A DNA stretch of 64,000 nt from an uncultured Pelagibacteraceae bacterium (GTDB lineage Bacteria > Pseudomonadota > Alphaproteobacteria > Pelagibacterales > Pelagibacteraceae), in NCBI GenBank assembly GCA_902540235.1, contig CACBLI010000008.1:13135-77134 (forward strand), read 5' to 3'. The translations under genes and the position numbers were made by a program. The notes below the pieces were generated by a model that saw only the letters and a list, made by a program, of their open reading frames with translations, was not told the origin of the DNA and searched no databases. Every line of letters begins with the position of its first letter. Position 1 is the stretch's first letter. Below are positions 19,131 through 41,114 of this stretch, piece by piece.

Positions 19131-20135
19131 ATGCATGACTTAATTAAAATTGCAGTTGATGCAATGGGTGGAGATGGATCACCTAAAAAAATTATAGATG
19201 GTATTATTCATAACCATAAACATAATAAAGAAAATTTTTTTAGAATTTTTGGTAAAAAAAATATAATCGAAAATGACCTTAATTCGAAAATTGACAAGAA
19301 GTTTTATGAAGTTATTGATACAGAAAATGCGGTTAAAAGTACGGATAGCCCTCTTGAAGCAGCTAAAAGAGGTAAAGATACAAGTATGTGGCTAGCTATA
19401 GAAAGTGTAAAAAAAAAAGATTCTGATATAGTCATATCTGCAGGAAATACTGGAGCACTTTTAGTTATCTCAAAATTAAATCTAAAGATGATCGAAAATA
19501 TAGACAAACCAGCTCTATCTGCATTATGGCCAAACAAAAAAGGCATGAGTGTTGTTCTTGATCTTGGAGCAAACATAGAATGCAGTGCAAAAAATTTAGT
19601 TGATTTTTCAATCATGGGAGCTTCGCTTTATAAATCTTTATATCCCCAAGAAAATCCAAATGTGGCTCTATTAAATATTGGATCTGAAGAATTAAAGGGG
19701 AATGAGACAATAAAAGAAACCTTTCAACTTATGAATAACAAAAAATCAGACAGTTATAATTTTGCTGGCTATATTGAAGGTAATGAAATTATGAACGGAG
19801 ATGTTAATGTAATAGTTTCAGATGGTTTTACTGGAAATGTAGCATTGAAAACTGCCGAAGGTACAGCAAATTTCATAACCAGTGAGCTTAAACATGCTCT
19901 TTCAGGATCTATTATTGGTAAACTTTCCTCACTTTTGAATATATCAAATTTAAGAAAATTTAAGAAAAGATTAGATCCAAGGTTATATAATGGTGCAATA
20001 TTCATTGGTCTTGACGCTCCGGTTGTTAAAAGCCACGGAGGAACTGATTATTTTGGTTTCTCAAATTCAATTGATGTATGTAACAAGATTGTTAAAGGAA
20101 ATCTGATTAAAAAGATAAATGAGAATATTGAATAA
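19131..20135 (+). CDS. plsX: Phosphate acyltransferase PlsX
   Basis: 334 aa with a PlsX pattern (IAVDAMGGDGSP, ISAGNTGAL, VSDGFTGNVALKT, VKSHGG). Confidence 0.93.
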   Translation: MHDLIKIAVDAMGGDGSPKKIIDGIIHNHKHNKENFFRIFGKKNIIENDLNSKIDKKFYEVIDTENAVKSTDSPLEAAKRGKDTSMWLAIESVKKKDSDIVISAGNTGALLVISKLNLKMIENIDKPALSALWPNKKGMSVVLDLGANIECSAKNLVDFSIMGASLYKSLYPQENPNVALLNIGSEELKGNETIKETFQLMNNKKSDSYNFAGYIEGNEIMNGDVNVIVSDGFTGNVALKTAEGTANFITSELKHALSGSIIGKLSSLLNISNLRKFKKRLDPRLYNGAIFIGLDAPVVKSHGGTDYFGFSNSIDVCNKIVKGNLIKKINENIE

Positions 20136-20141
20136 ATAATA

Positions 20142-21011
20142 ATGTTTTCAATAATCATTCCCACATTAAATAATCTATCATATCTTAAACTATGTATAAA
20201 AAGTATTCAGAAAAATTCAAAATATAATCACGAAATTATACCTCATGTTAATGTTGGCACAGATGGAACATTAGAATATCTAAAAAAAAATAACATAAAA
20301 TTTACTTACACAAAAGATAATTCAGGAATCTGCAAAGGTATGAATCTTGCAGCTAAAGAGTCAAAAAAAGAATACATCTTGTACGCTCATGATGATTTTT
20401 ATTTTTGTCCTAATTGGGATTTAATTTTGAAAGATGAAATTGAAAGGATAGGTCACAATCTATTTTATTTATCTGGAACAATGATGCATCGAGGCCAGAT
20501 TGATTTTGATTGTGGAAATACCTTTGAAGATTTCGATGAGAAAAAATTTTTATCAAATTATAAAGATTACAATTATTATGATTTTCAAGGATCAACATGG
20601 GCACCACATCTAATTCACAAGGATATTTGGAATAAAGTAAACGGTTTTAGTGAAGAATTTTATCCTGGTACTGGATCAGATCCAGATTTAAATATGAAAT
20701 TATGGAAATTAGGAGTGCGTATTTTTAAAGGTATTAATGATTTTAAAGTTTACCACTTTGGATCTATTGTCACAAGAAAATATAAGGGTGACTCAAAAAT
20801 TATAACTGAGTCAGGAAGCAAAGGTGGAAAGATATTTTTATTAAAATGGGGAATGACAATTAAGTTTTTTAAAAAATTTATAATGAAATCAGATACGAAA
20901 TTCAATGGTGAGCTTAAAGATCCAATTAGAAATTTTAATTTTTATATTAATCTATTTATTACAAAAATAAATTTTTTTTATGTAAAGTACTTTTATAAAA
21001 TTAAAATATAA
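20142..21011 (+). CDS. Family 2 glycosyltransferase
   Basis: 289 aa with an N-terminal FSIIIPTLNN start and an acidic AHDDF motif typical of GT-A/GT2 enzymes. Confidence 0.75.
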   Translation: MFSIIIPTLNNLSYLKLCIKSIQKNSKYNHEIIPHVNVGTDGTLEYLKKNNIKFTYTKDNSGICKGMNLAAKESKKEYILYAHDDFYFCPNWDLILKDEIERIGHNLFYLSGTMMHRGQIDFDCGNTFEDFDEKKFLSNYKDYNYYDFQGSTWAPHLIHKDIWNKVNGFSEEFYPGTGSDPDLNMKLWKLGVRIFKGINDFKVYHFGSIVTRKYKGDSKIITESGSKGGKIFLLKWGMTIKFFKKFIMKSDTKFNGELKDPIRNFNFYINLFITKINFFYVKYFYKIKI

Positions 21012-21016
21012 TAACT

Positions 21017-21721
21017 ATGTCAGAAAGACAAAATTTATTTATTAACATCAAATATAGATTTAAAAAATTTTTTTATCTATTCTATGGAGAGAAATTTTTT
21101 AAAAAAAAAAGATATGATTGGGGAAAGTACCCAAAGAGATTTGAGATAATTCAAGACATTATTGAATTTAAAAAATATAATTCCTATTTAGAAATTGGCT
21201 GTGATAGAAATCAAAGTTTTTCAAATATCAAGATTGAAAAAAGGGTAGGGGTAGATCCGGTTGAAGGTGGAACACATAAAATGACAAGCGATCATTTTTT
21301 TTCTATAAATAAGGATAATTTCGACATAATATTTATAGATGGACTTCATGAATATTCCCAGGTCATGAAAGATATAAAAAATTCACTAAAATTTATAAAT
21401 AAAAACGGGATAATTCTTCTTCATGATTGTTTACCTAGAACAATATGGAACCAAATCACTCCAAGACTAAATTCAGATTGGAATGGAGATGTTTGGAAGT
21501 CCATAGTGCATTGTAGAACACTAGAAAATATTGATACTTATACTTTTATTGCAGACCGAGGAATTGGATTAATTTTACCAAGAAAAAATAAGAATTTAAT
21601 TAAGTTTGAAAAAAAAGTAAATTTCAAAGATTTAACTTTTAAACAATATTTCATTGAACATGAATACCTAATGAATACGCTACATTATGATAAATCAAAA
21701 ATTCATGATTTATTTAAGTGA
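21017..21721 (+). CDS. Class I SAM-dependent methyltransferase (polysaccharide-cluster type)
   Basis: 234 aa. LEIGCD...VGVDP...FDIIFIDGLHEYSQVMKDIKNSLKFINKNGIILLHDCLP matches the Methyltransf_21/24-like pattern seen in surface-glycan loci. Confidence 0.7.
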   Translation: MSERQNLFINIKYRFKKFFYLFYGEKFFKKKRYDWGKYPKRFEIIQDIIEFKKYNSYLEIGCDRNQSFSNIKIEKRVGVDPVEGGTHKMTSDHFFSINKDNFDIIFIDGLHEYSQVMKDIKNSLKFINKNGIILLHDCLPRTIWNQITPRLNSDWNGDVWKSIVHCRTLENIDTYTFIADRGIGLILPRKNKNLIKFEKKVNFKDLTFKQYFIEHEYLMNTLHYDKSKIHDLFK

Positions 21722-21725
21722 TTAA

Positions 21726-22523
21726 ATGAAAAAAAAAATATTAGTTTCATATTTATTTACTAAATTTGATAATGAAGAATCTATAAATATTTTTAAAAAA
21801 AATTATTTAAAATTTAGTTCAGGCTATGATCATGATTTATTAATTTGTTTTAAAATGCTTGATGAAAAAAAAATTGAATATATTAAAAAAAATTTAGATG
21901 ATTTAAACTTCATTTCATTTGTAGATTACGTGCTTAAAAACGATTACGATTTTGGGAGTTATAAAAGAATAGCAGAAAAATATCCAGACAGAGATATCTT
22001 TTTCTTAAACAGTCACTCTTACCCAGTCTGTAATGACTGGTTAAATAAGTTAATGAAATTTAAAGACGAAATTACATTAATTGGAACTTCGGCTTCCAAT
22101 GAAAGTTTAATTGATAGTCTTGTTTTAAAAAAAAAATATAAAATACTCTCTTATTTTATAAAAAAATTTATTTATAGTAAATATTTTAACAAATTTCCCA
22201 ACCCACATATAAGAACTTCTAGTTTTTTAATTCATAGTCAAATTTTTTTAGATTTTATGGCAGATAAAAAAACTAATACTAAATTAGATGTATGGAAACT
22301 CGAAAGTGGAATAGGGAGTCTTACTAATTATTTTAAAGATAACAATTATAATGTATATGTTGTAAATTCTGATGGCAATAAATTTGAGCAAAAGGATTGG
22401 AAATTAAGTGAAACATATAATTATTATGAAAAATCAAAATTGATTATTTCCGATAAACACACAAGAAAATATGATGTATTGGACGAAAATGATAAATTAA
22501 TATCAAGAAGAAAGGTTTGGTGA
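21726..22523 (+). CDS. Hypothetical protein (possibly glycosyltransferase-like)
   Basis: 265-aa ORF tightly packed between a methyltransferase and a transporter. I recognise no diagnostic motif. Confidence 0.6.
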   Translation: MKKKILVSYLFTKFDNEESINIFKKNYLKFSSGYDHDLLICFKMLDEKKIEYIKKNLDDLNFISFVDYVLKNDYDFGSYKRIAEKYPDRDIFFLNSHSYPVCNDWLNKLMKFKDEITLIGTSASNESLIDSLVLKKKYKILSYFIKKFIYSKYFNKFPNPHIRTSSFLIHSQIFLDFMADKKTNTKLDVWKLESGIGSLTNYFKDNNYNVYVVNSDGNKFEQKDWKLSETYNYYEKSKLIISDKHTRKYDVLDENDKLISRRKVW

Positions 22524-22524
22524 T

Positions 22525-23421
22525 ATGGAAATTTATATCAAAATATTTGAGGTAATATTTCCAGTCTTTTTTGTAATTGGTATTGGTTATTATTTAGGTA
22601 AAAAAAACCCAAAATTTGATACCAATTTCATTACCAATTTCGCAGCTAACATAGGCACACCTGCCATGATTTTTTATACAGTTACTACTACAGGAATTAC
22701 TTTAGATATTTTCATAAGTTATTTTATTTATGCAATTATTATGATAGCTGGTTTTGCTATTATTGGTTTAGTACTACTTTTCTTACTTAGAAAAGATCTT
22801 TCTATGGAACTACCTCCGTTAATATTACCTAATACAGGTAATATGGGTATTCCTATCTGCCTTTTTGCATATGGTACTCAAGGTCTAGGTGTTGCATCTG
22901 CAGTGGCATCAGTAATTATTTTGTTTCATTTTACCCTAGGCGTATTTTTAGCAAAAAAAAAATTTTCATTAGATATATTGATAAAAAGTCCACCAGTTTA
23001 TGCTATAATTCTATCTGTTATTTTCTTATTTTTTAAAATTGATACTCCAATATTTTTAGAAAATACTACTTTTTTATTAACTTATGCTACAATTTTTTTA
23101 GTTTTAATGTCATTAGGCATAGCACTAACGCGATTTAAATTTTCATTTAAAAACTCAATAATAATGTCCATTTGTCGTGTCTTAATAGGACCTGTTATTG
23201 CTTATATCATCATATATAATTTTAAATTATCTGGATTAGCAGCTGGCGTATTACTGATACAAAGCGCTATGCCAAGTGCTATACTTAATTATTTAGTTGG
23301 AAGCATGTATTCACCAAAAAAAGTAGTTGATAGTATTGCCAGCACTATTGTAATATCAACTTTAATGTCTTTTGTAACAATTCCAATTGTTGTATTCTTT
23401 GCTTTAAAATACTTTAATTAA
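22525..23421 (+). CDS. AEC (auxin efflux carrier) family transporter
   Basis: 298 aa with about 10 TM segments. N- and C-terminal patterns are typical of the Mem_trans/AEC family (PVFFVIGIGY..., LIQSAMPSA). Confidence 0.7.
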   Translation: MEIYIKIFEVIFPVFFVIGIGYYLGKKNPKFDTNFITNFAANIGTPAMIFYTVTTTGITLDIFISYFIYAIIMIAGFAIIGLVLLFLLRKDLSMELPPLILPNTGNMGIPICLFAYGTQGLGVASAVASVIILFHFTLGVFLAKKKFSLDILIKSPPVYAIILSVIFLFFKIDTPIFLENTTFLLTYATIFLVLMSLGIALTRFKFSFKNSIIMSICRVLIGPVIAYIIIYNFKLSGLAAGVLLIQSAMPSAILNYLVGSMYSPKKVVDSIASTIVISTLMSFVTIPIVVFFALKYFN

Positions 23422-23439
23422 TATATATCCTTTAAGTTC

Positions 23440-24291
23440 ATGAAGGCCATAACTTTCAATCTTTTAGCATGGGTAATGCTTCCAATTATGGACGGATTTG
23501 CAAAATATTTGAGTACAGATCTTCCTGTTTTACAAATTACATGGGCAAGGTATTTTTTTACAGTTGCATTTACTCTTCCAATTATGTTTTTTTTTTTTAG
23601 AGCAAATCTTGTTTGGACAGATAAACCAAAATTACAAATTTTAAGAGGTCTAATTCTTTTAACAGCTAATATCTGTTTTTTTTATGCAATTTCAGTAATT
23701 TCTTTAGCAAAAGCATTAACTTTAGCTTTTGTTGCGCCTTTAATTGTTACAGCTTTTTCTCCAATTTTTTTAGGAGAAAAGGTTGGTTTTAGAAGATGGT
23801 CTGCAGTGATTATAGGTTTTATAGGTTCTTTGGTAGTTATAAGACCAGGTTTTGTTGAAATTAATTTAGCAAGTATAGCTGCACTCGGAACAGGAGTAAT
23901 GTATGGGTTTTATTTAATCATAACTCGGAAACTTAGTACTTCAGACAATCCTTTATTAACTTTATTGTTAACTGGCGTAGTAGGTGCCATAATTATATCC
24001 ATTGTTATGCCATTTGTGTGGGTTAAGCCTAACTTAAATCAGTGGTCTATGATGGCTGCGATAGGTATATTTGCGTGTATAGGCCATCTATTTTTAATAT
24101 TATCTCTTAAATATGCTGACGCCTCAAAATTGGCACCATTTAGCTACTTTGAGATCATTACAAATGTCATTATTGGCTATTATTTCTTTAATGATTTTCC
24201 TAATAATTGGACTTTCCTGGGTTTATTCATAATAATATTAAGTGGTATTTACATTTCAAGAAGAGAGAATTTAATTAGAAAAATTAAATAA
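23440..24291 (+). CDS. DMT superfamily (EamA-like) transporter
   Basis: 283 aa with 10 predicted TM segments and a duplicated EamA-like architecture. Confidence 0.7.
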   Translation: MKAITFNLLAWVMLPIMDGFAKYLSTDLPVLQITWARYFFTVAFTLPIMFFFFRANLVWTDKPKLQILRGLILLTANICFFYAISVISLAKALTLAFVAPLIVTAFSPIFLGEKVGFRRWSAVIIGFIGSLVVIRPGFVEINLASIAALGTGVMYGFYLIITRKLSTSDNPLLTLLLTGVVGAIIISIVMPFVWVKPNLNQWSMMAAIGIFACIGHLFLILSLKYADASKLAPFSYFEIITNVIIGYYFFNDFPNNWTFLGLFIIILSGIYISRRENLIRKIK

Positions 24292-24510
24292 TAGGTATTA
24301 TTTGTTTACTAATATCTAAAGTATTACATTAAGTATTATAATTAAAATGCTGTATTTATTAAATTTTATAAATTATATAATTTTATTTAATAATTAAAAA
24401 TATTGAGCTTAATATCATATGGAAGAGATGAGATTTTTAGCATATTATAAAAATACATCAAATAATCTGCTAAAATATGGGCTTTTACAAATCGTGGTTA
24501 TAAAAATTCC

Positions 24511-24650
24511 ATTAAAATAGGGTAGTGCAAAACCATTGATATAGTTGAATAGTAGAGCGATGCACTAATTGAATATACCATTTAAACGGCTTTAGAGGGG
24601 TCTAATTTAAGCATAGGCTCATATATGCTACAACTATAGGGTGAATTACG
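24511..24650 (-). repeat. Three-motif 3' module, copy A (downstream of the MGMT gene)
   Basis: Plus-strand motifs are ATTAAAATAGGGTA (24511-24524), ATAGTTGA (24541-24548) and GTGAATTACG (24641-24650). The same order and orientation occur in copy B at 25223-25284. Confidence 0.5.
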
Positions 24651-24733
24651 ATATTAATAGAAAAATTAGGTAAAAATGCAAAAAAACGTTGATTTTACTA
24701 ACTTTTTTAACATAAAAAAGCTTTAAAATACGG

Positions 24734-25009
24734 CTAAATCGCAACTTTTTCAGATTTAAGTAACTTGAGTTTTTGTTTGATTCCACCTCTTCCAGAGTAG
24801 CCTCCAACAGCTCCATCTGATCTAATCACTCTATGACAAGGTATTTTTGGAGCATATGGGTTTTTAGCACATGCATTAGCCACAGCACGAGCTGATTTAG
24901 GGTTTTTAATACCAATAGCCACCTGTTTGTAGGTTTTTACCCTACCTTTTGGTATGGTTTTAATAAACTTCCAGACTTTTAGTTGAAATTTAGTGCCCTT
25001 AAGTATCAT
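24734..25009 (-). CDS. ogt: Stand-alone methylated-DNA--protein-cysteine methyltransferase (MGMT/Ogt C-terminal domain only)
   Basis: GTKFQLKVW...YKQVA...ARAVANACAKNPYAPKIPCHRVIRSDGAVGGY carries the PCHRV active-site cysteine. I place the start at the ATG at 25009 (91 aa), because the track start at 25093 adds 28 residues that run through a terminator-like hairpin and a GC-rich block. The gene looks noticeably more GC-rich than its neighbours. Confidence 0.8.
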   Translation of the reverse strand: MILKGTKFQLKVWKFIKTIPKGRVKTYKQVAIGIKNPKSARAVANACAKNPYAPKIPCHRVIRSDGAVGGYSGRGGIKQKLKLLKSEKVAI

Positions 25010-25014
25010 TTTTG

Positions 25015-25059
25015 AAAAAAACCCCTGTTTCCTTGCACTTTTAAAGGTGCAAAGAACAG
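25015..25059 (-). terminator. Terminator-like hairpin plus U7, 5 nt upstream of the MGMT start codon (possible attenuator)
   Basis: The minus strand reads CUGUUCUUUGCAC-cuuuaaaa-GUGCAAGGAAACAG, about 13 bp with one bulge. GGG and UUUUUUU follow, then CAAAA-AUG. Confidence 0.45.
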
Positions 25060-25200
25060 TTGTTTTGGCACGTCGTTGATGCGCTACCGCCATGCCTCCC
25101 GCCCCACATGTTCAGCGATGCTTTGTGAAGCTTTCTGCCCCCTGGAATTGTACCTCTCGGCTTTTGTCCAATTGGCCAGTTAAGAGTTGCCTCTTAATTC
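25060..25200 (-). promoter_or_regulatory. GC-rich candidate structured RNA (5' leader/riboswitch-like element or sRNA)
   Basis: I counted 48 of 80 nt as G+C in 25081-25160, against a roughly 30% background. The minus strand starts with a 7-bp hairpin capped by a GNRA tetraloop (UUAAGAG-GCAA-CUCUUAA, 25180-25197). I found no convincing ORF in any frame. Confidence 0.4.
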
Positions 25201-25222
25201 ATAATTAACTTAACAAAGTTAA

Positions 25223-25284
25223 ATTAAATAGGGTATCACTAAATAGTTGATTTTCTAAATTCTGGTACTTTTGTGTGAATTACG
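25223..25284 (-). repeat. Three-motif 3' module, copy B (downstream of the 69-aa membrane-protein gene)
   Basis: Plus-strand motifs are ATTAAATAGGGTA (25223-25235), ATAGTTGA (25243-25250) and GTGAATTACG (25275-25284), co-linear with copy A. An imperfect palindrome ACTTAAC-AAA-GTTAAAT lies next to it at 25208-25224. Confidence 0.5.
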
Positions 25285-25295
25285 GTGATAACTCT

Positions 25296-25505
25296 CTATT
25301 TAGTAAGCAAAATCAGGTAACTGGCTAAAAATATAATTGCCATAATAGATAAAAATATTGTGTTGAAACTTTTACCAGTATTTCGATATTGAATAATACT
25401 CAAAAAAATAAAACCTATTGAGCTTATTAAAAACCAAATTGCAGGAATTTCTCCATCAATCGAACCCATAATTTTGTAATTTAAACTATTGACATTAAAA
25501 ATCAC
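25296..25505 (-). CDS. Small hypothetical membrane protein (2 TM)
   Basis: 69-aa ORF with two hydrophobic helices (IPAIWFLISSIGFIFLSII and IFLSIMAIIFLASYLILL). Divergent from the recombinase gene. No recognisable family. Confidence 0.5.
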   Translation of the reverse strand: MIFNVNSLNYKIMGSIDGEIPAIWFLISSIGFIFLSIIQYRNTGKSFNTIFLSIMAIIFLASYLILLTK

Positions 25506-25516
25506 CTAATATATAA

Positions 25517-25543
25517 TTTCCGATAATTAATGGTTATCGGAAA
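25517..25543. promoter_or_regulatory. Perfect 10-bp inverted repeat with 7-nt spacer (TTTCCGATAA-TTAATGG-TTATCGGAAA)
   Basis: Read directly from the sequence. It lies in the 43-nt divergent spacer between the small membrane-protein gene and the recombinase gene and ends 5 nt before the recombinase ATG. Confidence 0.7.
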
Positions 25544-25548
25544 GTTAT

Positions 25549-26463
25549 ATGAATGATTTAATTAAAGATGTAAAAAACTTAGAATTAGAAACTTTAAAAA
25601 ATTTAAAGAATTCAAAAGCTCATAACACCTTGCGAGCTTATCAGGCAGATTTTAAAGATTTTACAGAGTTTTGTACAAAAAATGGTTTTAATTCATTACC
25701 AACTGATTCAAAAATAATAGCATTATATCTTACACACTTAAGCGCATTTAGTAAATTTAGCACTTTAAAAAGAAGATTAGCCTCAATAAAAGTAATTCAC
25801 AGATTAAAAGGGCATTATATCGATACAAAACATCCAATTATTGCTGAAAATTTAATGGGAATAAAAAGAAAGATGGGAGTTAAACAAATATCTAAAAAAC
25901 CATTATTAATCAATGATTTAAAATTGATTATTAATCTAATAGATAAAGAAAAAAATGAGTATAAGAAACATCAAAATCGAGCTTTATTGTTAATTGGATT
26001 TGCAGGCGGCTTTCGAAGATCAGAATTAGTATCGATTGAATATGAAGATATTGATTTCGTGAATGAAGGAGTAAAAATCTTGATAAGAAGGTCAAAGACG
26101 GACCAAACTGGATTAGGAATGATAAAGGCAATCCCCTACTTCGAAAATAAAATCTATTGTCCCGTTATATCTTTAAAAGCATGGATAAAACATGCCAAAA
26201 TTTACAACGGTAAAATATTCAATATATCCGACAAAACGGTAGCTTTAACAATTCAAAAATATGCACTATTAGCTGGTTTGGATAAAACAAAATACGCAGG
26301 TCATAGCTTAAGATCTGGATTTGCAACATCAACAGCTGAAATTGGTGCAGATGAAAGAAGCATTATGGCAATGACAGGTCATAAAACAACTCAAATGGTA
26401 AGAAGATATATACAAGAGGCAAATTTATTTAAAAATAATGCTTTAAATAAAATTAAAATATGA
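25549..26463 (+). CDS. Tyrosine-type site-specific recombinase/integrase (Cre-like subfamily)
   Basis: 304 aa. N-terminal SAM-like core-binding domain (TLRAYQADFKDFTEFC, ALYLTHL...STLKRRLASI). Catalytic domain has Arg I (GGFRRSEL), IRRSKTDQ, HSLRSG (H-x-x-R) and the GHKTTQMVRRY tyrosine motif. Confidence 0.88.
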   Translation: MNDLIKDVKNLELETLKNLKNSKAHNTLRAYQADFKDFTEFCTKNGFNSLPTDSKIIALYLTHLSAFSKFSTLKRRLASIKVIHRLKGHYIDTKHPIIAENLMGIKRKMGVKQISKKPLLINDLKLIINLIDKEKNEYKKHQNRALLLIGFAGGFRRSELVSIEYEDIDFVNEGVKILIRRSKTDQTGLGMIKAIPYFENKIYCPVISLKAWIKHAKIYNGKIFNISDKTVALTIQKYALLAGLDKTKYAGHSLRSGFATSTAEIGADERSIMAMTGHKTTQMVRRYIQEANLFKNNALNKIKI

Positions 26464-27287
26464 ACGAAATAACAATTGTAATTATTACTTATAAAAGTGG
26501 AAATATAATATATGATTTTATTAAGAAAATTCCTTCAACTATAAAAACAATAATAATAGATAATTCACAAGATTATGAATTAAAAAAAAATATTGAAGAA
26601 AATTATAAGAATATATCAGTATATTTAAAAGAAAATAACGGTGTCAGCTCAGCATTAAATTATGCAGTAGAAAAAATTAAAACTAAATATTTTTTACAAA
26701 TAAGTCCCGATCTTGAATTTAATTTTGAAAATTTAAATATTTTTCTTGATTTTGCTAAGAAAAAAAAAAATAATTTTGCTGCTTTAGGACCAAGATTTTT
26801 AGATGTGAAACAAAAAAGTCACAAACAAATTAATGAGAACTTAAAATTGGGTAAAATTGACTCCATTCATGGATCTTGCATGTTTGTAGATAAAGATATT
26901 TTTCTTAAAATTGGAAAATTTGATGAAAATTTTTTTTTATATTTTGAAGAAACCGAATATTGCTATAGAGCAAAAAAAAAAGGTTATCTTTCATATCAAA
27001 TTAATGACATAAAAGTTACAACTAAAGGTAGATCTGTTGATTTAGAAAGTGAAAGTTTTTCTAATATTCTTATATGGCATTTCATTTGGTCAAAATTTTA
27101 TTTTCACAAAAAAAAATACGGAAAATTATTATCATTGATAATCTTTTTACCTTTATTAGTAAGAATATTATTTAGAATAATCTTATATACAATTACTAAA
27201 AACGAAATATCAACAACAAAGTACAAAACAAGGTTTGATGGTTTATTAAAATCAATTAAAGGTCAAAAATCAGATTTAAGGCCTTAA
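26460..27287 (+). CDS. Family 2 glycosyltransferase
   Basis: 275 aa with ITIVIITYKS, IIIDNS and SPDLEF acidic motifs of GT2. Its ATGA start overlaps the recombinase stop. Confidence 0.75.
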   Translation: MNEITIVIITYKSGNIIYDFIKKIPSTIKTIIIDNSQDYELKKNIEENYKNISVYLKENNGVSSALNYAVEKIKTKYFLQISPDLEFNFENLNIFLDFAKKKKNNFAALGPRFLDVKQKSHKQINENLKLGKIDSIHGSCMFVDKDIFLKIGKFDENFFLYFEETEYCYRAKKKGYLSYQINDIKVTTKGRSVDLESESFSNILIWHFIWSKFYFHKKKYGKLLSLIIFLPLLVRILFRIILYTITKNEISTTKYKTRFDGLLKSIKGQKSDLRP

Positions 27288-27292
27288 TTGGC

Positions 27293-28585
27293 TTAATTAT
27301 ATAATCTAATTAGGGTAGGAAATTTTAAGATATTTTTATTGCTTTTAAAAATAGAAAGACATTTTTTTGCATTTATTTCCTTAGTTTTATGAGTAATTAT
27401 AATAATTCTTGCTTTTTTATTCTTTTTATCAGGTGTTTGAATTATTCGGTCAACTGAAATTTTAAATTTTGCAAGTCTGTTTGTAATGTTTGATAAAACA
27501 CCCTGTTTATCTTTAACTTCAAATCGAATATAAAGAGAATTAGTATAATTATCTATATCAAATGGTTTGATAACTTTTCTTTTTTTTGATGATATTCCAA
27601 AAGGAAATTTGATATTTCCTCTTAATATTGACATCAAATCTGACAATAAAGAAGATGACGTGGGCCCAGGTCCAGCACCCTCCCCTTGTAAAACACTTTG
27701 TCCTACAGGTTTGCCCTCTGTAATAACTGCATTCATTACACCATTGACATTGCCTATATAGGTTTTTTTGCTTACGAGACACGGGTGTACTGTCTCAAAT
27801 AATTTTCCATCAATTATTTCAGATATACCAAGTAACTTAACTCTTAAACCTAATTGATTTGCAATTTTTATATCCTCTAGCTTAATATTCTCTATACCTT
27901 CCATGATACATTTGTTTTTAGAAATTTTTCCATTAAATGAAAGTGCGGATAATATTCTTATTTTAGCAAATGCATCAAATCCATTTAGATCAAGTTTTGG
28001 GTTACCTGGTTCTGCAAAACCTAATTTTTGTGCTTTCTGTAACACTTTATCAAATGTCTGATTTGAACTTTCCATTTCAGATAAAATATAATTTGTAGTG
28101 CCATTTAAAATACCGTAAACTTTATTAATTTTATTGGTTGATAAGCCCTCTTTAATAGTTCTTAAGATTGGAATACCTCCAGCTACTGAAGCCTCAAATT
28201 CTAAATTGACTTTGTTTTTCTCTGCTAATTTTGCAAGATTATCTCCATGTTTTGAAATTAATGCTTTATTAGGAGTAATTACATGAACTTTATTACTTAA
28301 TGCTCTTTCAACTAATTTTTTAGATATACCGTCTGAATACCCTATACACTCAAATAAAATATCAATTTTTTCTTTTTCAAAAATTTTTAGAGGATTTCTG
28401 TAAAAAATTTTCTTTGAAATAGAAAAACGTCTCTTTTTCTTCCTATTTTTAGCAGAAATAGCCACAATTTTAATTTTCTTCCCTGTTTTTTTTTCAATCT
28501 CATTTTTTTTAAGATTTAATTCGTTATAAAGATAAATTCCTATTTGACCTAAACCAACTATAGCAATATTAATATTTTTTTTCAT
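27293..28585 (-). CDS. hom: Homoserine dehydrogenase
   Basis: 430 aa with an N-terminal Rossmann motif (IAIVGLGQIG), a homoserine dehydrogenase catalytic core (GILNGTTNYIL, PKLDLNGFDAFAKI) and a C-terminal ACT domain. Confidence 0.92.
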   Translation of the reverse strand: MKKNINIAIVGLGQIGIYLYNELNLKKNEIEKKTGKKIKIVAISAKNRKKKRRFSISKKIFYRNPLKIFEKEKIDILFECIGYSDGISKKLVERALSNKVHVITPNKALISKHGDNLAKLAEKNKVNLEFEASVAGGIPILRTIKEGLSTNKINKVYGILNGTTNYILSEMESSNQTFDKVLQKAQKLGFAEPGNPKLDLNGFDAFAKIRILSALSFNGKISKNKCIMEGIENIKLEDIKIANQLGLRVKLLGISEIIDGKLFETVHPCLVSKKTYIGNVNGVMNAVITEGKPVGQSVLQGEGAGPGPTSSSLLSDLMSILRGNIKFPFGISSKKRKVIKPFDIDNYTNSLYIRFEVKDKQGVLSNITNRLAKFKISVDRIIQTPDKKNKKARIIIITHKTKEINAKKCLSIFKSNKNILKFPTLIRLYN

Positions 28586-28586
28586 T

Positions 28587-28760
28587 TTAGTTATCTATAT
28601 TAGGATAAGGTTGGTTTTTTGCATATTCTTCTAATTTTTCTTTAAATTCCTCGAAAGTTAAATCATTTGAAAAATCTAAATTTTGAAAATTTTTTTGAGT
28701 TACGCCACTATTTGAAGAACAGCTTATTAAAAACAAAAAAATTACTAAATATCTATTCAT
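28587..28760 (-). CDS. Small putative lipoprotein (57 aa, below the ORF-track cutoff)
   Basis: My translation is MNRYLVIFLFLISCSSNSGVTQKNFQNLDFSNDLTFEEFKEKLEEYAKNQPYPNIDN. It has a signal peptide with lipobox LISC. Its ATG overlaps the argC stop (ATGA) and its stop lies 1 nt before the hom start. Confidence 0.55.
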   Translation of the reverse strand: MNRYLVIFLFLISCSSNSGVTQKNFQNLDFSNDLTFEEFKEKLEEYAKNQPYPNIDN

Positions 28761-29779
28761 CTTAAACCTTCATTTATATCAAAGTTTTTCAAAATATTCA
28801 TATTTTGAATAGCTTGTCCAGCCCCTCCTTTGATTAAATTATCAATGCAAGATAATATTATCGCTTTATCTTTATATTTTGATTTGCAAATTGATATTTT
28901 GCAATTATTTGTATTGATTACATCATTAGTACTTACAGATGAATTCAATTTGGCAATTTTTACAAATTTTTCTTTTTTGTAAAATTTTTTTAGTTCATTA
29001 AATAAATTATTAATCGTTTTTCCTCTTGCTAAATCTACATAAATTGTTGATAAAATTCCTCTAAACATTGGAGACAAATGAGGTGTAAAAGTAAATTTAA
29101 ATTTATTTTTTGTAAAATTTTTAATCATTTGTTCAATTTCAGAATTATGTCTATGAAATCCAACTCCATAAGCGCTTATTGACTCGTATAAGTTTTTATT
29201 TTTATGTTTTTTATGCACACTTCTTCCAGCGCCTGAATAACCAGATTTTGAGTCTATAATAATACTGTCTTTTATGATTAAATTTTTTTTAATTAGTGGA
29301 ATAATTGGTATTAAAATAGATGTTGGATAACAACCAGGACATCCAATTATTTTAAATTTTTTTATCTTGTCACCTGTTAATTCTGGTAACGAATAAATTG
29401 ATTTTTTGATTAATTTTGGTGCTTTATGTTTTTTTTTATACCATTTTAAATATGAGGATGCTTTATCAAGTCTAAAATCGGCAGCTAAATCTATTAAGAT
29501 ATTTTTTTTTAAAAGTTTTTTTGAAATTAATTGTGCTTCACCATTTGGAAGAGCAGTAAATATAATTTCAACATCTTTCAATAAATGTTCATTAAATTTA
29601 ATAATTTTTGGTAATTTTTTGTTTCTCAGTGATTTTTGATACAAAGAAATATCTTTACCTGCTGAACTATTACCACATAAATATTTTATATTAATTTTTT
29701 TATGCTTAATTAATAAATTTATAAGTTGAACACCTATATAACCTGTTGATCCAGCAATTAGTACATTTATCTTAGACAT
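28757..29779 (-). CDS. argC: N-acetyl-gamma-glutamyl-phosphate reductase
   Basis: ArgC pattern (VLIAGSTGYIGVQL, GCPGCYPTS active-site Cys). I start at MSKINV (29779), because the longer track ORF (to 29875) would overlap rpsI. Confidence 0.88.
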   Translation of the reverse strand: MSKINVLIAGSTGYIGVQLINLLIKHKKINIKYLCGNSSAGKDISLYQKSLRNKKLPKIIKFNEHLLKDVEIIFTALPNGEAQLISKKLLKKNILIDLAADFRLDKASSYLKWYKKKHKAPKLIKKSIYSLPELTGDKIKKFKIIGCPGCYPTSILIPIIPLIKKNLIIKDSIIIDSKSGYSGAGRSVHKKHKNKNLYESISAYGVGFHRHNSEIEQMIKNFTKNKFKFTFTPHLSPMFRGILSTIYVDLARGKTINNLFNELKKFYKKEKFVKIAKLNSSVSTNDVINTNNCKISICKSKYKDKAIILSCIDNLIKGGAGQAIQNMNILKNFDINEGLR

Positions 29780-29813
29780 TGAATATAATAACAGTTTAAA
29801 TAAAAAAAAAAAA

Positions 29814-30251
29814 TTATCTTTTAGAAAATTGAAAGCTTCTTCTTGCTTTTCTTCTACCGGGTTTTTTTCTTTCAACTGCTCTTGGATCCCTAGTAGTAAG
29901 GTTCTGAGTTTTTAAGGTGGTTTTTAGGTTTTCATCAAATAAAACTAAAGCTTTAGAAATACCATGAACCATAGCACCTGCTTGGCCAGTGTGACCGCCT
30001 CCACTTACACTGCATTTTACATCATAAGCAGTAGGTTGATTAATAATATCAAAAGGTCTTGTTATTTGCATTTTGTGATTTTCACTTACGAAATAATCAC
30101 TAAAGAGTTTACCATTAACATAGATCTTACCAGAGCCTTTTTTTAACCAAACCTTAGCAATGGAGGTTTTTCGTCTGCCTGTAGCATACTTACTATCTTT
30201 AAAATCCAATTTTAATTTTGACTTGTTATTATCTAACTGAGTATTTTCCAT
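29814..30251 (-). CDS. rpsI: 30S ribosomal protein S9
   Basis: 145 aa ending in ...GRRKARRSFQFSKR. Downstream of rplM, as in the conserved rplM-rpsI operon. Confidence 0.95.
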   Translation of the reverse strand: MENTQLDNNKSKLKLDFKDSKYATGRRKTSIAKVWLKKGSGKIYVNGKLFSDYFVSENHKMQITRPFDIINQPTAYDVKCSVSGGGHTGQAGAMVHGISKALVLFDENLKTTLKTQNLTTRDPRAVERKKPGRRKARRSFQFSKR

Positions 30252-30252
30252 G

Positions 30253-30711
30253 TTAGTTTCGCACCAAATTTTTATTATTTAATTTTGCTAATTCTATAAT
30301 TTTTGGATTTTGTGCGGTATGAGGGTGATCATTTCCAGAATAAATTTTTAATTTTGAAAGTTGTTTTTTTCCTAATACACCGCCTGGAAGCATTCTTTTA
30401 ACAGCTAGTTTCAGAGCTTCATCTGGTTTTTTTTCATAAAGTTTTTCAGGTGTAGTCACTTTAATTCCCCCAGGATATCCAGTGTGCCGATAATATTTTT
30501 TATCCTGAAATTTTTTTCCAGTAAATTTTGCATGTTCTATATTTTTCACAACTACAAAATCACCATTATCCATATGAGGTGTAAATGTAGTTTTGTTTTT
30601 TCCTCTTATAATCTTTGTAATAATAGCTGCTAATCGGCCAATCACAGCATTTTTAGCATCAATTTCATACCAATTATTATTGATTTGGTTTTTGTTAACA
30701 AATTTAGTCAT
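30253..30711 (-). CDS. rplM: 50S ribosomal protein L13
   Basis: 152 aa with an L13 pattern (WYEIDAKNAVIGRLA, HTGYPGG). 1-nt spacer to rpsI. Confidence 0.95.
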   Translation of the reverse strand: MTKFVNKNQINNNWYEIDAKNAVIGRLAAIITKIIRGKNKTTFTPHMDNGDFVVVKNIEHAKFTGKKFQDKKYYRHTGYPGGIKVTTPEKLYEKKPDEALKLAVKRMLPGGVLGKKQLSKLKIYSGNDHPHTAQNPKIIELAKLNNKNLVRN

Positions 30712-30721
30712 GATTGGCGCG

Positions 30722-30750
30722 ATTAATACTGATAAATGTCATATTGTCAA
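30722..30750 (-). promoter_or_regulatory. Candidate promoter for rplM-rpsI (TTGACA-N17-ATTAAT)
   Basis: On the minus strand there is a consensus -35 hexamer (30750-30745), a 17-nt spacer and a -10-like ATTAAT (30727-30722). It would give a leader of only a few nt. Confidence 0.3.
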
Positions 30751-30802
30751 TTTATATTAATATTGATACTTAACTATTAACATTTAAAAATAAGGATAAT
30801 TT

Positions 30803-32137
30803 ATGAAAGATAAAAAAAATAAAAGCACAGATGCTAAAACGTACAAATTTGATACATTAAGTCTACACGCCGGATATCAACCTCACAAAAATGCTGGGTC
30901 TAGACAAGTGCCAATTTACCAAACAACTTCATATTTATTTGATGACGTAGATCACGCTGCAGCACTATTTAATCTTGAAAGAGGTGGTCACATATATAGT
31001 CGAATATCGAACCCAACAGTTGCGGTTCTGGAAGAAAGAGTTGCATCACTTGAGGGTGGTACAGCAGCTTTAGCTACTTCTTCAGGGATGAGTGCAATAT
31101 TCCTAGCTGTAATGACATTGTGTGAGGCTGGAGATCATTTAGTTGTATCATCACAATTATATGGAGGTACAGTAAATCTTTTTAGACTAACCTTACCAAA
31201 ATTCGGAATAAAAACAACTTTTGTAAAACCAAGAGACACAGAAGGATTTAAAAAAGCAATACAAAAAAATACTAAAGGTATTTTTGGGGAGCTCGTTGGA
31301 AATCCTGGAAATGAATTGATGGATATGCCAGCAATAGCAAATATTGCTCATGAAGCAGGTATACCTTTAATGGTTGATGCAACATACCAAACACCCTACT
31401 TATGTCGACCAATTGAACACGGTGCAGATATTGTAGTTCACTCATTAACCAAATGGATGGCTGGTCATGGATCTTCAATGGCAGGAATAATTGTTGAAGG
31501 TGGAAAATTTGACTGGATGCAAAACGATAAGTTTCCTACAATGACACAACCTTACGAAGGTTATCATGGTTTATCTTTTGCTGAAGAGTTTGGACCAACT
31601 GCATTTACCATGAAAGCAAGAGCCGAAGGGATGAGAGATTTCGGACCTTGTTTAAGTCCTCAAAATGCTTGGAATGTTTTACAGGGTATTGAAACTTTAT
31701 CAGTAAGGATGCAAAAACATTGTGCTAATGCTGAAAAAATGGTCGAATATCTATTAGGACATGAAAGTGTTGCTTGGGTTTCACATCCGAGTGTCCCTGA
31801 TCATCCTGATCATGAACTAGCAAATAAATTATTACCAAATGGCAAAGGTTCAATGATAGCTTTTGGTATTAAAGGTGGTAAAGAAGCTGGTGAGGCTTTT
31901 ATTAATAATGTTAAATTAGCTTCTCATTTAGCAAATGTTGGTGACACAAGAACGCTTGTTATTCATCCTGCTTCAGCGACTCACTCTCAAATGGATGAGG
32001 CTACATTGAAGTTTGCAGGATTATCTCATGACATGATTAGACTTTCTGTTGGGATTGAAGATATTGATGATATCAAGAATGATTTTGAGAATGGATTTAG
32101 AGCTGCTAGAAAACCTAGGCTCGTATCCAATCAATGA
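30803..32137 (+). CDS. metY: O-acetylhomoserine sulfhydrylase (PLP-dependent)
   Basis: 444 aa of the Cys/Met-metabolism PLP family, with the PLP-lysine context SLTKWMAGHG and an MetY-like N-terminus (FDTLSLHAGYQP). Confidence 0.9.
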   Translation: MKDKKNKSTDAKTYKFDTLSLHAGYQPHKNAGSRQVPIYQTTSYLFDDVDHAAALFNLERGGHIYSRISNPTVAVLEERVASLEGGTAALATSSGMSAIFLAVMTLCEAGDHLVVSSQLYGGTVNLFRLTLPKFGIKTTFVKPRDTEGFKKAIQKNTKGIFGELVGNPGNELMDMPAIANIAHEAGIPLMVDATYQTPYLCRPIEHGADIVVHSLTKWMAGHGSSMAGIIVEGGKFDWMQNDKFPTMTQPYEGYHGLSFAEEFGPTAFTMKARAEGMRDFGPCLSPQNAWNVLQGIETLSVRMQKHCANAEKMVEYLLGHESVAWVSHPSVPDHPDHELANKLLPNGKGSMIAFGIKGGKEAGEAFINNVKLASHLANVGDTRTLVIHPASATHSQMDEATLKFAGLSHDMIRLSVGIEDIDDIKNDFENGFRAARKPRLVSNQ

Positions 32138-32949
32138 AATTTAAAGTAAATAATCATGAGGTCTATGCATCAACTGGTGGCAGACCATTCGATAAAAGTA
32201 AACCTTTAATAATATTTGTTCACGGTAGTGGACTTACCCATATGACCTGGGTATTGCAAACAAGATATTTTGCTTTCCATGGTTATAGTGTTTTGGCATT
32301 AGATATGCCTGGGCACGGTTTATCTGGAGGGGAAAGTTTAAAATCTATTGAGGCAATGGCGGATTGGATTAATGATGTTATAGATGTAGTAGGATACAAA
32401 GAAGCATCATTAGTTGGTCACTCGCAAGGGTGTTTAGTTACAGTTGAATGTACCGCAAGATATCCTAATAGAATAAAAACTTTGAGTCTTATGGGAGGTG
32501 CTGGTGCAATTCCAATGAACCCTGAGCTATTATCTTTAGCGGAGAATGATAACCCTAAAGCAGTAGAACTGATGATGGATTGGGCGCATGGACCAGCTGG
32601 TCATTTTGGAGGACACCCAGTGCCAGGTCTTTATCATATAAATACTGGTTCTATGTTGGCAAAAACTAGAACAATTAAGAATACGCTTGGAGTTGATTTT
32701 AGAGCTTGCGATAACTACAAGAATGGATTCGAAGCTGCAAAAAAAATAAAAATCCCCACCCTATCAATACTAGCAACCGATGATAAAATGTGCCCAGTTA
32801 AAGAGGGGAAAAAACTTGCTGATTTGATTGAAGGTAGTCAAGTGGATATTATTGATAACTGTGGACATATGATGTTATTAGAAGAAGCTGATAGAGTTCT
32901 TAAAGTTCTAAAAAAATTTATAACAACAAATTATCCACCAAAAAAATAA
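32134..32949 (+). CDS. Alpha/beta-fold hydrolase
   Basis: 271 aa with an HGSG oxyanion motif, nucleophile elbow GHSQG and a C-terminal CGHM histidine. ATGA overlap with metY. Confidence 0.75.
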   Translation: MKFKVNNHEVYASTGGRPFDKSKPLIIFVHGSGLTHMTWVLQTRYFAFHGYSVLALDMPGHGLSGGESLKSIEAMADWINDVIDVVGYKEASLVGHSQGCLVTVECTARYPNRIKTLSLMGGAGAIPMNPELLSLAENDNPKAVELMMDWAHGPAGHFGGHPVPGLYHINTGSMLAKTRTIKNTLGVDFRACDNYKNGFEAAKKIKIPTLSILATDDKMCPVKEGKKLADLIEGSQVDIIDNCGHMMLLEEADRVLKVLKKFITTNYPPKK

Positions 32950-32963
32950 GCACTTATTTACTT

Positions 32964-34073
32964 ATGAAGAAGAATTTTAGATTTTTTGATAATAGGCAAA
33001 AGTATTTACTTTTTGTAACTACTACAAATGAAAAAAATAAAATTGCTGATGCTTTAAAACCAATAATTCGAAAGCTAAAACCTAAATATCCTGCATTAAA
33101 AGTCTTTGATGCAGGTATGGGAGATGGATCTTTATTAATGAGTATTATGAGACAATGTCATCAAAAAATGCCACACATTCCCATGCTAATAAGCACTAAA
33201 GAAATAAGTTTAGAAGATGTTAGGTTGGGCCTTGAAAAACTTCCTGACAGATTTGTAGAACATAAAAATACAGTATTTGTCATTTCAAATCTAAACTATG
33301 TTGAGTCTACTTCATTAAAGTCAAATAATAAGATGAAACAAAAAAAATTGAATTGGAAAATTGTAAAACTAAAAGGAAATTCATCCCTTGATTTTTCTGA
33401 TCAACTAAGAAAACTTAACCAAGGGTTTTTAAGTAAAAAATGGCAAATTGAAAGAAACCCAATAAATGGTAATCCAACTTATAAAGAGCCCTCAGTAATT
33501 ATAATTTATAGAAAAGATCAGGAATTTTCTTTAAAAAATATCATTCCAAAAAAAAATAATGGTAAAAATAATTTTGATTTGATCATAGCTTCACAGCCTT
33601 ATAGATCAAGAATATCTGTTGAAAAAAAAGTAAGATATGTGATTGATCCAATGATCAAGTCATTAAATAAAAAAGGTAAATTAGCAGTTATTCATGCCTG
33701 TGGAAATGACCCTGGTAACCAAATAATTAAGAAAATTTGGCCAAAAGAAAAACCATTTCCCTCATTATACAGATCAATTTTAAGATATATTAGAAAAAAT
33801 ACTGACAAAAATTTATTAAAAAATCTTAAATTTAACAAAAAAACAAATATAAGATATGTATTAAGAGCTTTACCTAATGAAATCAGTGGAGGTATCGCTA
33901 CTTCACTCATATTTTCGGCATGGAACGCTGCAATTTATGTAAATCAAATATCAGATAAACAGATACTGAGTGCTGAAAAAAAAAAAGATTATCAAAAAAT
34001 TGTCCAACAAATTGTTAACAAAAATAAAGGATTATATTTTAATAATGAATTATTTGTTATTGAGAGAAAGTAA
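32964..34073 (+). CDS. Hypothetical protein, possibly a class I methyltransferase-like fold
   Basis: 369-aa ORF. The only motif I recognise is VFDAGMGDGS, which resembles SAM-binding motif I. The function call is weak. Confidence 0.55.
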   Translation: MKKNFRFFDNRQKYLLFVTTTNEKNKIADALKPIIRKLKPKYPALKVFDAGMGDGSLLMSIMRQCHQKMPHIPMLISTKEISLEDVRLGLEKLPDRFVEHKNTVFVISNLNYVESTSLKSNNKMKQKKLNWKIVKLKGNSSLDFSDQLRKLNQGFLSKKWQIERNPINGNPTYKEPSVIIIYRKDQEFSLKNIIPKKNNGKNNFDLIIASQPYRSRISVEKKVRYVIDPMIKSLNKKGKLAVIHACGNDPGNQIIKKIWPKEKPFPSLYRSILRYIRKNTDKNLLKNLKFNKKTNIRYVLRALPNEISGGIATSLIFSAWNAAIYVNQISDKQILSAEKKKDYQKIVQQIVNKNKGLYFNNELFVIERK

Positions 34074-35093: not shown

Positions 35094-35136
35094 ACCTGTT
35101 TAAATATAATATTTATTGATAATTCCAATTGAACAA

Positions 35137-35427: not shown

Positions 35428-35619
35428 TTATTTACTATGAGGAGGAAGTTTTTTTTCAACAAAAACTTCATGTTTACGAGTAGATGGATTATATTTTTTT
35501 ACTTTTAATTTTACTTTAGCTTTTTCTCCACCTGCAGGTTTTTTAACATAGTAAAAAAAAGAGCTATCTGGTTTAGCTTCAGGGACAAGTCTTACTTTAA
35601 TATGAGTTTTTTTAGCCAT
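35428..35619 (-). CDS. rpmG: 50S ribosomal protein L33
   Basis: 63 aa. MAKKTHIKVRLV...FFYYVKK...KLKVKKYNPSTRKHEVFVEKK matches the L33 pattern. Confidence 0.8.
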   Translation of the reverse strand: MAKKTHIKVRLVPEAKPDSSFFYYVKKPAGGEKAKVKLKVKKYNPSTRKHEVFVEKKLPPHSK

Positions 35620-35624
35620 AAGTA

Positions 35625-41037: not shown

Positions 41038-41114
<77 letters not shown>

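Follow-up and report, generated by a model that had tools for sequence, protein, structure and literature searches.

The G+C-rich block that lies directly upstream of an MGMT-family gene in the 64,000-nucleotide stretch of Pelagibacteraceae DNA analysed here (the window) is a gene for IMES-2, a structured non-coding RNA that is already catalogued, and it adds no new RNA class. The fold of the RNA and a terminator hairpin behind it are conserved among its relatives, which occupy two main chromosomal neighbourhoods; in one of these, that of the window, the start codon of MGMT abuts the hairpin. We consider it likely that IMES-2 is a stand-alone RNA gene of a known family, which has promoter-like boxes and a terminator of its own, and that the MGMT gene behind it is served by read-through in one lineage.

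SAR11 bacteria are the most abundant heterotrophic bacteria of the sea. IMES-2 was reportedly described from marine metagenomes by Weinberg, Perreault, Meyer and Breaker in 2009, and the original papers behind it are said to be those of Weinberg and of Shi, both of 2009. We take the RNA to be very abundant in ocean metatranscriptomes and, as has been reported, to accumulate as a discrete RNA; it was presumably seen later in an isolate of the SAR11 clade. We know of no function and no ligand for IMES-2.

Identity of the G+C-rich block

In the interval 25081-25160, 48 of 80 nucleotides are G or C, which reproduces the count of the initial annotation, compared with 28.2% across the whole window. 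This block is the second-highest 80-nt G+C peak of the window, the highest being tRNA-Pro. When the region was scanned against Rfam with cmscan, the minus strand at 25065-25204 matched the IMES-2 RNA motif (RF02035) with 139.6 bits (gathering score 54.7, E-value 2.4e-37), and the match spanned the full model (positions 1-141 of 141). All other Rfam matches in the scan of positions 23500-27000, where E-values up to 10 were admitted, were at chance level. The initial annotation had stated that the block belonged to no known class, which is wrong; its choice of the minus strand and its boundaries were right, and P1, the G-runs, the 3' hairpin, GGG-U7 and CAAAA-AUG were all found where it had placed them (Table 1). 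A tmRNA or tRNA identity was rejected, as ARAGORN gives seven tRNAs only, none of them at the block.

Eighteen homologous loci were rescanned with RF02035, and each matched the full model with 143-164 bits. The window copy thus has the lowest score among the copies tested, which is explained by two features of its clade, a variant P3 loop and the loss of 1 nt from the P4 loop.

Table 1. Features of the IMES-2 locus, in window positions
Feature	Position	Strand	Basis or remark
57-aa hydrophobic ORF, ends about 90 nt upstream of IMES-2	25296-25469	-	tblastn
Upstream boxes TTATCACCG-TAATTCACACAA (TTATCCAC-like)	25271-25291	-	far end of the upstream homology
Upstream box AGTGATA (RGTGATW), 37-43 nt before P1	25234-25240	-	fixed distance
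Extended -10-like box TGTTAAGTT (TGnTAnnnT), 9 nt before P1	25207-25215	-	putative IMES-2 promoter
IMES-2 RNA core, RF02035	25065-25204	-	cmscan, full length
P1, UUAAGAG-GCAA-CUCUUAA, 7-bp hairpin with GCAA (GNRA) tetraloop	25180-25197	-	sequence
P2/P2a/P2b domain, ends in C-GAGA-G (GNRA) loop	25135-25179	-	Rfam consensus structure mapped on the window
P3, 8-bp stem and large loop	25101-25131	-	alignment A1
P4, 9-position stem with one invariant G-A, invariant loop GUAGCGCAU-CAA	25067-25096	-	model, alignment A1
Palindromic loop of IMES-2, UAGCGCUA
Predicted intrinsic terminator, 13-bp hairpin, GGG and U7	25015-25059	-	sequence, MFE
MGMT-family gene, 91 aa, ATG 5 nt after the U-tract	24734-25009	-	Pfam, NCBIfam

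Relatives were fetched from a species-representative genome collection with a pattern built on the conserved loops (at least 119 loci), and from metagenomes with a looser pattern (at least 120 marine contigs). All 119 genome matches listed belong to Pelagibacteraceae or Pelagibacter, and each comes from a different assembly, that is, IMES-2 is present as one copy per assembly in at least 119 loci. As far as the sampled loci show, IMES-2 is an RNA specific to the SAR11 (Pelagibacteraceae) lineage; this restriction, like the restriction to the genomic contexts described below, describes the genome and contig matches listed and not totals. Scanning a viral contig collection with the pattern gave 0 matches, and a phage origin of IMES-2 was rejected on this ground.

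Conservation of the IMES-2 fold

The minimum free energy (MFE) structure of 202 nt of the minus strand has -66.6 kcal/mol (z = -4.68), a value that none of 200 shuffled sequences reached, and its helices coincide with the consensus helices of RF02035. We aligned 106 distinct IMES-2 cores (alignment A1) and projected the Rfam structure on them. Standard pairs occupied 94.3% of the cells, compared with 31-44% in controls in which the partners had been slid; 23 of 39 pairs had changed on both sides, and the covariation score was reached by 0 of 500 shuffles. The four-helix fold of IMES-2 is strongly supported by this covariation. The changes are distributed over the helices as follows: in P1, every cell is paired (100%), with changes on both sides at 2 of 7 pairs; in the P2 domain, double changes affect 7 of the 11 pairs of helix 2 and 3 of the 4 pairs of helix 3; and all 8 pairs of P3 have changed on both sides, with 96.8% of cells paired. 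A scan of A1 for mutual information between any two columns revealed no convincing pseudoknot or extra helix: the top pairs were known helices or register shifts of P3, and the single new pairable pair (columns 54 and 87) has changes in one clade only.

The loops are also conserved. GGCAAC, CGAGAG, GGGCAGAAAG, GGCGGUAGCGC and AACGAC are all present in the window and invariant in A1, and G114-C124 and A128-C133 (numbering of the first sequence) are invariant in 106 of 106 sequences, an invariance that is in part circular because the search pattern that fetched the loci required GGCGGTAGCGC and other blocks. The blocks partly required by the pattern, for which invariance in A1 is not independent, are four: GGCAAC, CGAGAG, GCNGAAA and GGTAGCGC. 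In most relatives the motif GUAGCGC is found in both large loops, P3 and P4. The P3 loop reads AAGCAUCGCUGAACA in the window versus AGUAGCGCUAAAAU in most relatives aligned in A1; the variant of the window's clade has AUCGCUGAAC in place of UAGCGCUAAA, so that GUAGCGC is absent from its P3 loop and AUCGC is found instead. The P4 loop of the same clade carries a 1-nt deletion.

Genomic neighbourhoods of IMES-2

Neighbouring ORFs were clustered and annotated with Pfam for 120 genome loci, the window included, among the matches listed. Two main conserved neighbourhoods, contexts A and B, hold IMES-2 in the genome loci and metagenome contigs listed. Context A comprises 83 of the 120 genome loci listed, the window among them, and about 52 of the 120 metagenome contigs listed. 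On its upstream side are variable glycosyltransferase and methyltransferase genes, a non-Xer tyrosine recombinase gene on the opposite strand and a 57-aa hydrophobic ORF (orf57); this ORF is followed by IMES-2, the hairpin and MGMT, and beyond these by EamA, a Mem_trans transporter and homoserine dehydrogenase on the opposite strand. The 57-aa ORF was detected by tblastn in 57 context-A loci listed, with 43-95% identity and mostly at -277 to -107 relative to the RNA; it has no match in Pfam, NCBIfam or PHROG.

Context B accounts for 37 of the 120 genome loci and about 65 of the 120 metagenome contigs listed. Here the order is recX, a gene of the inositol-monophosphatase family, mnmA, IMES-2 and the hairpin, beyond which lie a convergent membrane-protein gene, a PLP enzyme of Cys/Met metabolism and an MFS transporter. 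Neither MGMT nor the recombinase is among the context-B neighbours; IMES-2 is therefore not tied to MGMT. Other arrangements were found on metagenome contigs: both neighbours of IMES-2 are on the opposite strand on contig L145, the upstream neighbour is on the opposite strand on contig L221, and an extra gene is inserted downstream of IMES-2 on contig L195.

A predicted intrinsic terminator behind the RNA

The 3' hairpin of the window (CUGUUCUUUGCAC...GUGCAAGGAAACAG, 25059-25025) has 13 bp and one bulge, because of which a simple terminator scanner missed it. It is followed by GGG, U7 (25021-25015), CAAAA and the ATG at 25009-25007, and it lies outside the RF02035 model. Its predicted energy is -20.8 kcal/mol, and it forms in the MFE structure along with all IMES-2 helices. 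A hairpin of -18 to -25 kcal/mol was found directly after CCAAAAC in all 119 listed loci with enough 3' flank (82 of 82 in context A and 37 of 37 in context B). The hairpins comprise 44 different sequences for context A and 15 for context B. Among the 82 context-A loci listed, 79 have a longest U run of 4-10. The sequence of the context-A hairpin is well conserved across the loci listed. The context-B stems are unrelated in sequence and often have GNRA loops, with an A-tract and a U-tract at their sides, the form expected for a bidirectional terminator between convergent genes.

Judged by sequence and predicted stability, the element at 25059-25015 is the putative terminator of IMES-2 and would form the 3' end of its transcript. 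Its sequence conservation in context A goes far beyond the ordinary need of a terminator, which hints at an added role that might consist, for example, in masking the ribosome-binding region of MGMT or in conditional termination.

Conserved boxes upstream of P1

About 100 nt upstream of P1 are homologous between contexts A and B. Within this region, RGTGATW was found in all 81 context-A loci and in 34 of the 37 context-B loci listed (115 of 118), for a background of 1.9%. Of the 81 context-A loci listed, 77 have the extended -10-like motif TGnTAnnnT with its end 7-10 nt before P1, compared with a background of 5.6%, and a related box, TGATTTAAT, occupies the same position in context B. Boxes conserved at fixed distances before P1 make it likely that transcription starts at P1. 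Together with the position of the U-tract, they indicate an IMES-2 transcript of probably about 185-190 nt, starting at or just before P1, near 25200. The initial annotation had offered, as its second choice, a separate sRNA, about 185 nt long and terminated at the U-tract, and the comparative data support this proposal.

Two other assignments of the boxes were rejected. AGTGATA is not a sigma-70 -35 element, its distance to the -10 box (20-21 nt) being too long. A DnaA-box reading of TTATCCAC was discarded: the window copy reads TTATCACCG / TAATTCACA, the strict form TTATNCACA shows no enrichment in the window, and the TTATCCAC-like box of context B is just the last part of the coding region of mnmA, whose final codons (LST*) it encodes.

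In both main contexts a co-directional ORF (orf57 or mnmA) ends 60-105 nt upstream of IMES-2, and the RNA could therefore come in part from the processing of a longer transcript. Taken to its full extent, this explanation would make IMES-2 a processed 3'-UTR or intercistronic RNA that has no promoter of its own and is cut from an orf57-IMES-2-MGMT or an mnmA-IMES-2 transcript. We consider it unlikely, as the only gene upstream of IMES-2 on contigs L145 and L221 is on the opposite strand, so that a promoter of its own is needed at least sometimes; the -10-like boxes before P1 in both contexts also argue against it, as does the extent of the homology between the A and B upstream regions, which reaches back no further than about 100 nt from P1, a length that fits a promoter region.

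Relation between IMES-2 and the MGMT gene

The 91-aa MGMT-family protein of the window consists of the C-terminal domain alone (PF01035, 109 bits; TIGR00589, 97 bits) and has an intact PCHR motif. Its gene is tightly apposed to the hairpin: in 80 of the 81 context-A loci listed, 66-74 nt separate GGTAGCGC from the ATG, which puts the start codon 0-9 nt past the U run, and in several context-A loci the two touch directly. In the exception, L050, the 57-aa ORF is inserted between GGTAGCGC and the MGMT ATG. Because there is no room for a separate promoter after the terminator, MGMT is likely transcribed by read-through, and in this lineage its mRNA probably arises by read-through of the IMES-2 terminator. 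A terminator in this position must gate MGMT transcription in the lineage, at least passively; that the gating is conditional we judge quite unlikely.

The spacing between the RNA and the ATG also bears on the possibility that the block is not an RNA, and is instead a decayed N-terminal (PF02870-type) domain of ogt or an N-terminal extension of MGMT. The window does contain an in-frame ATG at 25093, which opens a 119-aa ORF. However, the extended ORF has no Pfam match beyond PF01035, and the spacings of 66-74 nt are not multiples of three, the frame being kept in only about one-third of the loci listed; there is therefore no conserved N-terminal extension. In addition, the substitutions in the block are those of compensatory base pairing, and IMES-2 exists without MGMT in context B. 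The decayed ogt domain, which the initial annotation had itself named as the finding that would speak against its RNA, is refuted by the missing Pfam match, the variable spacing and the compensatory changes, and we give practically no credence to a protein-coding origin of the block.

The first choice of the initial annotation had been a transcription-attenuating riboswitch for MGMT. In such a cis-acting device, the occupancy of IMES-2 by a ligand or a protein would decide on termination at 25059-25015, before MGMT. The layout of context A agrees with it: a large, highly conserved structured domain is followed by a terminator of unusually conserved sequence that ends within a few nucleotides of the MGMT start in 80 of 81 loci. 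The distribution of the RNA does not, since IMES-2 copies with equally good scores are found in context B and in other places where the downstream gene is convergent or unrelated. IMES-2 is thus not the leader of one functional gene class, MGMT being behind the RNA only in context A among the loci listed, and Rfam classes it as 'Gene', not as 'Cis-reg'.

A search for mutually exclusive terminator and antiterminator folds gave nothing beyond shuffled background. No conserved alternative partner was found for the 5' arm of the terminator, and the duplexes of this arm with the core fall at inconsistent sites; the best of them has -12.9 kcal/mol, close to the -10.8 kcal/mol obtained with shuffled arms and far from the -20.8 kcal/mol of the terminator, which is moreover compatible with all IMES-2 helices in the MFE structure. 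A riboswitch or attenuator acting in cis is on these grounds distinctly improbable. IMES-2 also lies behind mnmA without MGMT and next to genes of the opposite strand, and the riboswitch-type switch is not supported; what stands of the attenuator idea is the terminator abutting the MGMT start, with passive gating at least.

The neighbouring recombinase

Among the matches listed for the tyrosine recombinase encoded at 25549-26463, all with at least 87% identity, are proteins from metagenomes and genome databases that share 87-93% identity with it; one of them bears the name site-specific integrase of Candidatus Pelagibacter sp. In 73 context-A loci listed, this recombinase is the divergent neighbour, and the block of int, orf57, IMES-2, MGMT and EamA is intact in several genomes in which the flanks are rearranged. 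In many loci AGTGATA resembles the half-arm TAGTGATAA of the palindromic site of the recombinase. IMES-2 could on this basis be regarded as a recombinase-linked element, either a guide or accessory RNA or an attachment site. This explanation is very improbable: contexts other than A have no recombinase within 4-8 kb, the upstream boxes have no direct repeat in the window and no significant inverted repeats surround the block, and the recombinase has a complete 33-bp core-like site of its own elsewhere (25517-25543). To our knowledge, no RNA-guided tyrosine recombinase has been described. An integrative island was likewise rejected, as the upstream boxes are unrepeated in the window and positions 20000-30000 contain no meaningful direct or inverted repeats.

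Several observations concern the recombinase itself. It is not XerC or XerD (74 bits for a cutoff of 330). The 33-bp site is located 10-12 nt before the recombinase ATG in 73 of 73 listed loci that carry the recombinase; it consists of inverted arms of 13 bp around GATAA-N7-TTATC, and its 7-bp spacer is nearly invariant. The GATAA-N7-TTATC core motif occurs once in the window, and the site of the window overlaps a perfect TTGACA-17-TATAAT promoter. Around 24-36 kb the GC skew of the window, until then positive, becomes mostly negative, and the strands of the genes converge at 24-27 kb. Pelagibacter ubique has been reported to be without a dif/Xer system (Carnoy and Roten, 2009, PMC2731167). 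The sequence features suggest that the recombinase and its site may form a gene-linked recombinase and dif-like module at a replication terminus.

Discussion

IMES-2 would, in the reading that we favour, be transcribed from a promoter of the extended -10 type, ahead of which lie two conserved boxes. The RNA would fold into P1 with its GCAA loop, a three-part P2 domain with a GAGA loop, and the hairpins P3 and P4, and the transcript would end at its own intrinsic terminator, 25059-25015. Those polymerases that read through the terminator would express MGMT. A protein or nucleic-acid partner would bind to a surface formed by the two invariant loops, which the compact fold would expose.

The RNA probably acts in trans. 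Our best guess, an inference from the conservation of the loops, is that it might be a decoy or scaffold RNA to which a partner binds. The P3 loop of the window's clade has no GUAGCGC, and the idea of twin binding sites is therefore weakened. A dual-function RNA may also be envisaged, that is, an abundant trans-acting RNA in which the occupancy by a partner or ligand also sets the read-through into MGMT; we hold this to be highly doubtful. If it were true, alkylation repair in the most abundant bacteria of the ocean would be under the control of an attenuator that is riboswitch-like or depends on a protein. In a weaker variant of the same proposal IMES-2 might be a mimic of a tRNA D-arm: both GUAGCGC loops are identical to the two halves of the D-stem of tRNA-Pro.

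IMES-2 is one of the structurally well-supported bacterial RNA classes without an assigned function, and a copy in SAR11 was to be expected. What the comparison of loci adds is a complete transcription unit, in which promoter boxes and a terminator extend beyond the Rfam model, together with the presence of a single copy per sampled assembly in just two main chromosomal neighbourhoods. The order RNA, terminator, MGMT predicts a DNA-repair gene that would be expressed only via read-through of a highly expressed RNA gene.

Compared with the IMES-2 motif as defined by RF02035, the window copy shares the four-helix architecture, the GNRA loops, the conserved loop sequences and a marine genome of the SAR11 type. 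It differs by the variant P3 loop and the 1-nt deletion in the P4 loop, and the unit described here differs by the terminator and the upstream boxes that the model leaves out. Nothing excludes membership in the family.

Terminating riboswitches, such as the purine, SAM-I and glycine leaders, have in common with the locus a structured domain followed by a stem-loop with a U-tract and a start codon, but IMES-2 has neither a conserved association with one gene class nor a mutually exclusive antiterminator.

The 6S RNA gene of Escherichia coli (ssrS) is an abundant stable RNA located directly upstream of a small housekeeping ORF, ygfA, which depends on transcription through the RNA gene. By analogy, the IMES-2 unit would begin with the RNA gene, and the ORF downstream on the same strand would yield little mRNA. 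The two systems differ in that IMES-2 has no 6S match in the Rfam scan at E-values up to 10, and in that 6S RNA is one long helix with a central bubble whereas IMES-2 consists of four hairpin domains. A strong predicted intrinsic terminator separates IMES-2 from the ORF, and the link with the ORF exists in only one of two major lineages.

With the orphan RNAs IMES-1, raiA, OLE, GOLLD and ROOL, IMES-2 shares a fold supported by covariation, invariant loops and a discovery by comparative genomics or metagenomics. It differs from them in being small, with a core of about 140 nt, in belonging to one bacterial family and in being present as a single copy in the assemblies sampled.

Variation in the IMES-2 RNA

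In A1, the alignment of 106 distinct cores of the small RNA IMES-2, columns 54 and 87 can pair in all 106 sequences (U:G in 75, A:U in 18 and C:G in 13). The double change is confined to one clade, that of the window, and therefore represents one event only.

Most relatives carry the heptamer GUAGCGC in both large IMES-2 loops. Outside IMES-2, its only occurrences in the window are the two halves of the tRNA-Pro D stem, against a chance expectation of 0.39 copies, and GGUAGCGCAU is common to the IMES-2 P4 loop and tRNA-Pro. This sharing could reflect a loop-loop helix resembling a D-arm, or be coincidental.

A divergent IMES-2 was observed in the metagenomic locus L145, which represents a third genomic context, with both IMES-2 neighbours on the opposite strand. 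In this copy CCAAUGG replaces the CCGAGAGG loop; the TGATTTAAT box and the 3' hairpin with its U run are retained.

Features of the IMES-2 region and of related loci (window coordinates unless a contig is named)
Feature	Position	Strand	Remark
A1 columns 54 and 87	25151 and 25118		last P2b nucleotide and one P3-loop position
GUAGCGC, IMES-2 copy	25081-25087
GUAGCGC, tRNA-Pro copies	41089-41095 and 41102-41108		D-stem halves
orf57, hydrophobic 57-aa ORF (MGSIDGEIPAIWFLISS...)	25296-25469	(-)	between recombinase and IMES-2
Tyrosine recombinase with preceding site	25489-26463	(+)	adjoining IMES-2
Palindromic recombinase site	25517-25543		before recombinase ATG
L145 IMES-2	~960-1220 of oriented locus		contig Ga0208411_1006953

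Gene neighbourhood and block inversion

Among the matches listed, orf57 is kept in 57 loci of context A, the arrangement found in the window, with the recombinase on one side and IMES-2 on the other; in two IMES-2 loci (L050 and L214), it is placed between IMES-2 and the MGMT gene instead. No family match was found for orf57. Beyond the recombinase, as seen from IMES-2, context-A loci carry variable glycosyltransferases (GT1, GT2 and GT11 families) and methyltransferases, a set that differs from genome to genome (in the window, for example, 26460-27287). This places the recombinase at the edge of a small, flexible cell-envelope island.

Comparison of window ~22500-27300 with five other IMES-2 loci (L005, L015, L089, L104 and L113) revealed a block inversion in the window and in a few other genomes: the recombinase, orf57, IMES-2, MGMT, EamA and, in some cases, Mem_trans are inverted as a unit with respect to the flanking homoserine dehydrogenase and glycosyltransferases, whereas the majority of genomes are arranged otherwise. 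No inverted repeats flanking the block were found in the window.

Along the window (1-64000), the first ~24 kb show a GC skew of +0.10 to +0.19; the skew is close to zero between 22 and 36 kb and mostly negative past 34 kb, with the switch near 24000-36000. Gene orientation is convergent at 24-27 kb. The replication terminus may therefore lie within the window, in which case the recombinase site and IMES-2 would be located at it, a reading that is not conclusive because GC skew locally tracks gene strand as well.

The recombinase and its palindromic site

An identity of the tyrosine recombinase as XerC or XerD was rejected. In all 73 recombinase-bearing loci among the matches listed, the recombinase ATG is preceded, at a distance of 10-12 nt, by a 33-bp palindromic site, whose 13-bp arms are arranged around GATAA-N7-TTATC and whose spacer is TTAATTG or TTAATGG. 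In the window copy, a perfect TTGACA-17-TATAAT promoter overlaps the site. The 33-bp element resembles a core site linked to the gene of its recombinase, with a layout that appears similar to that of XerS/difSL. A site of this kind is of interest because dif/Xer has been reported absent from P. ubique (PMC2731167).
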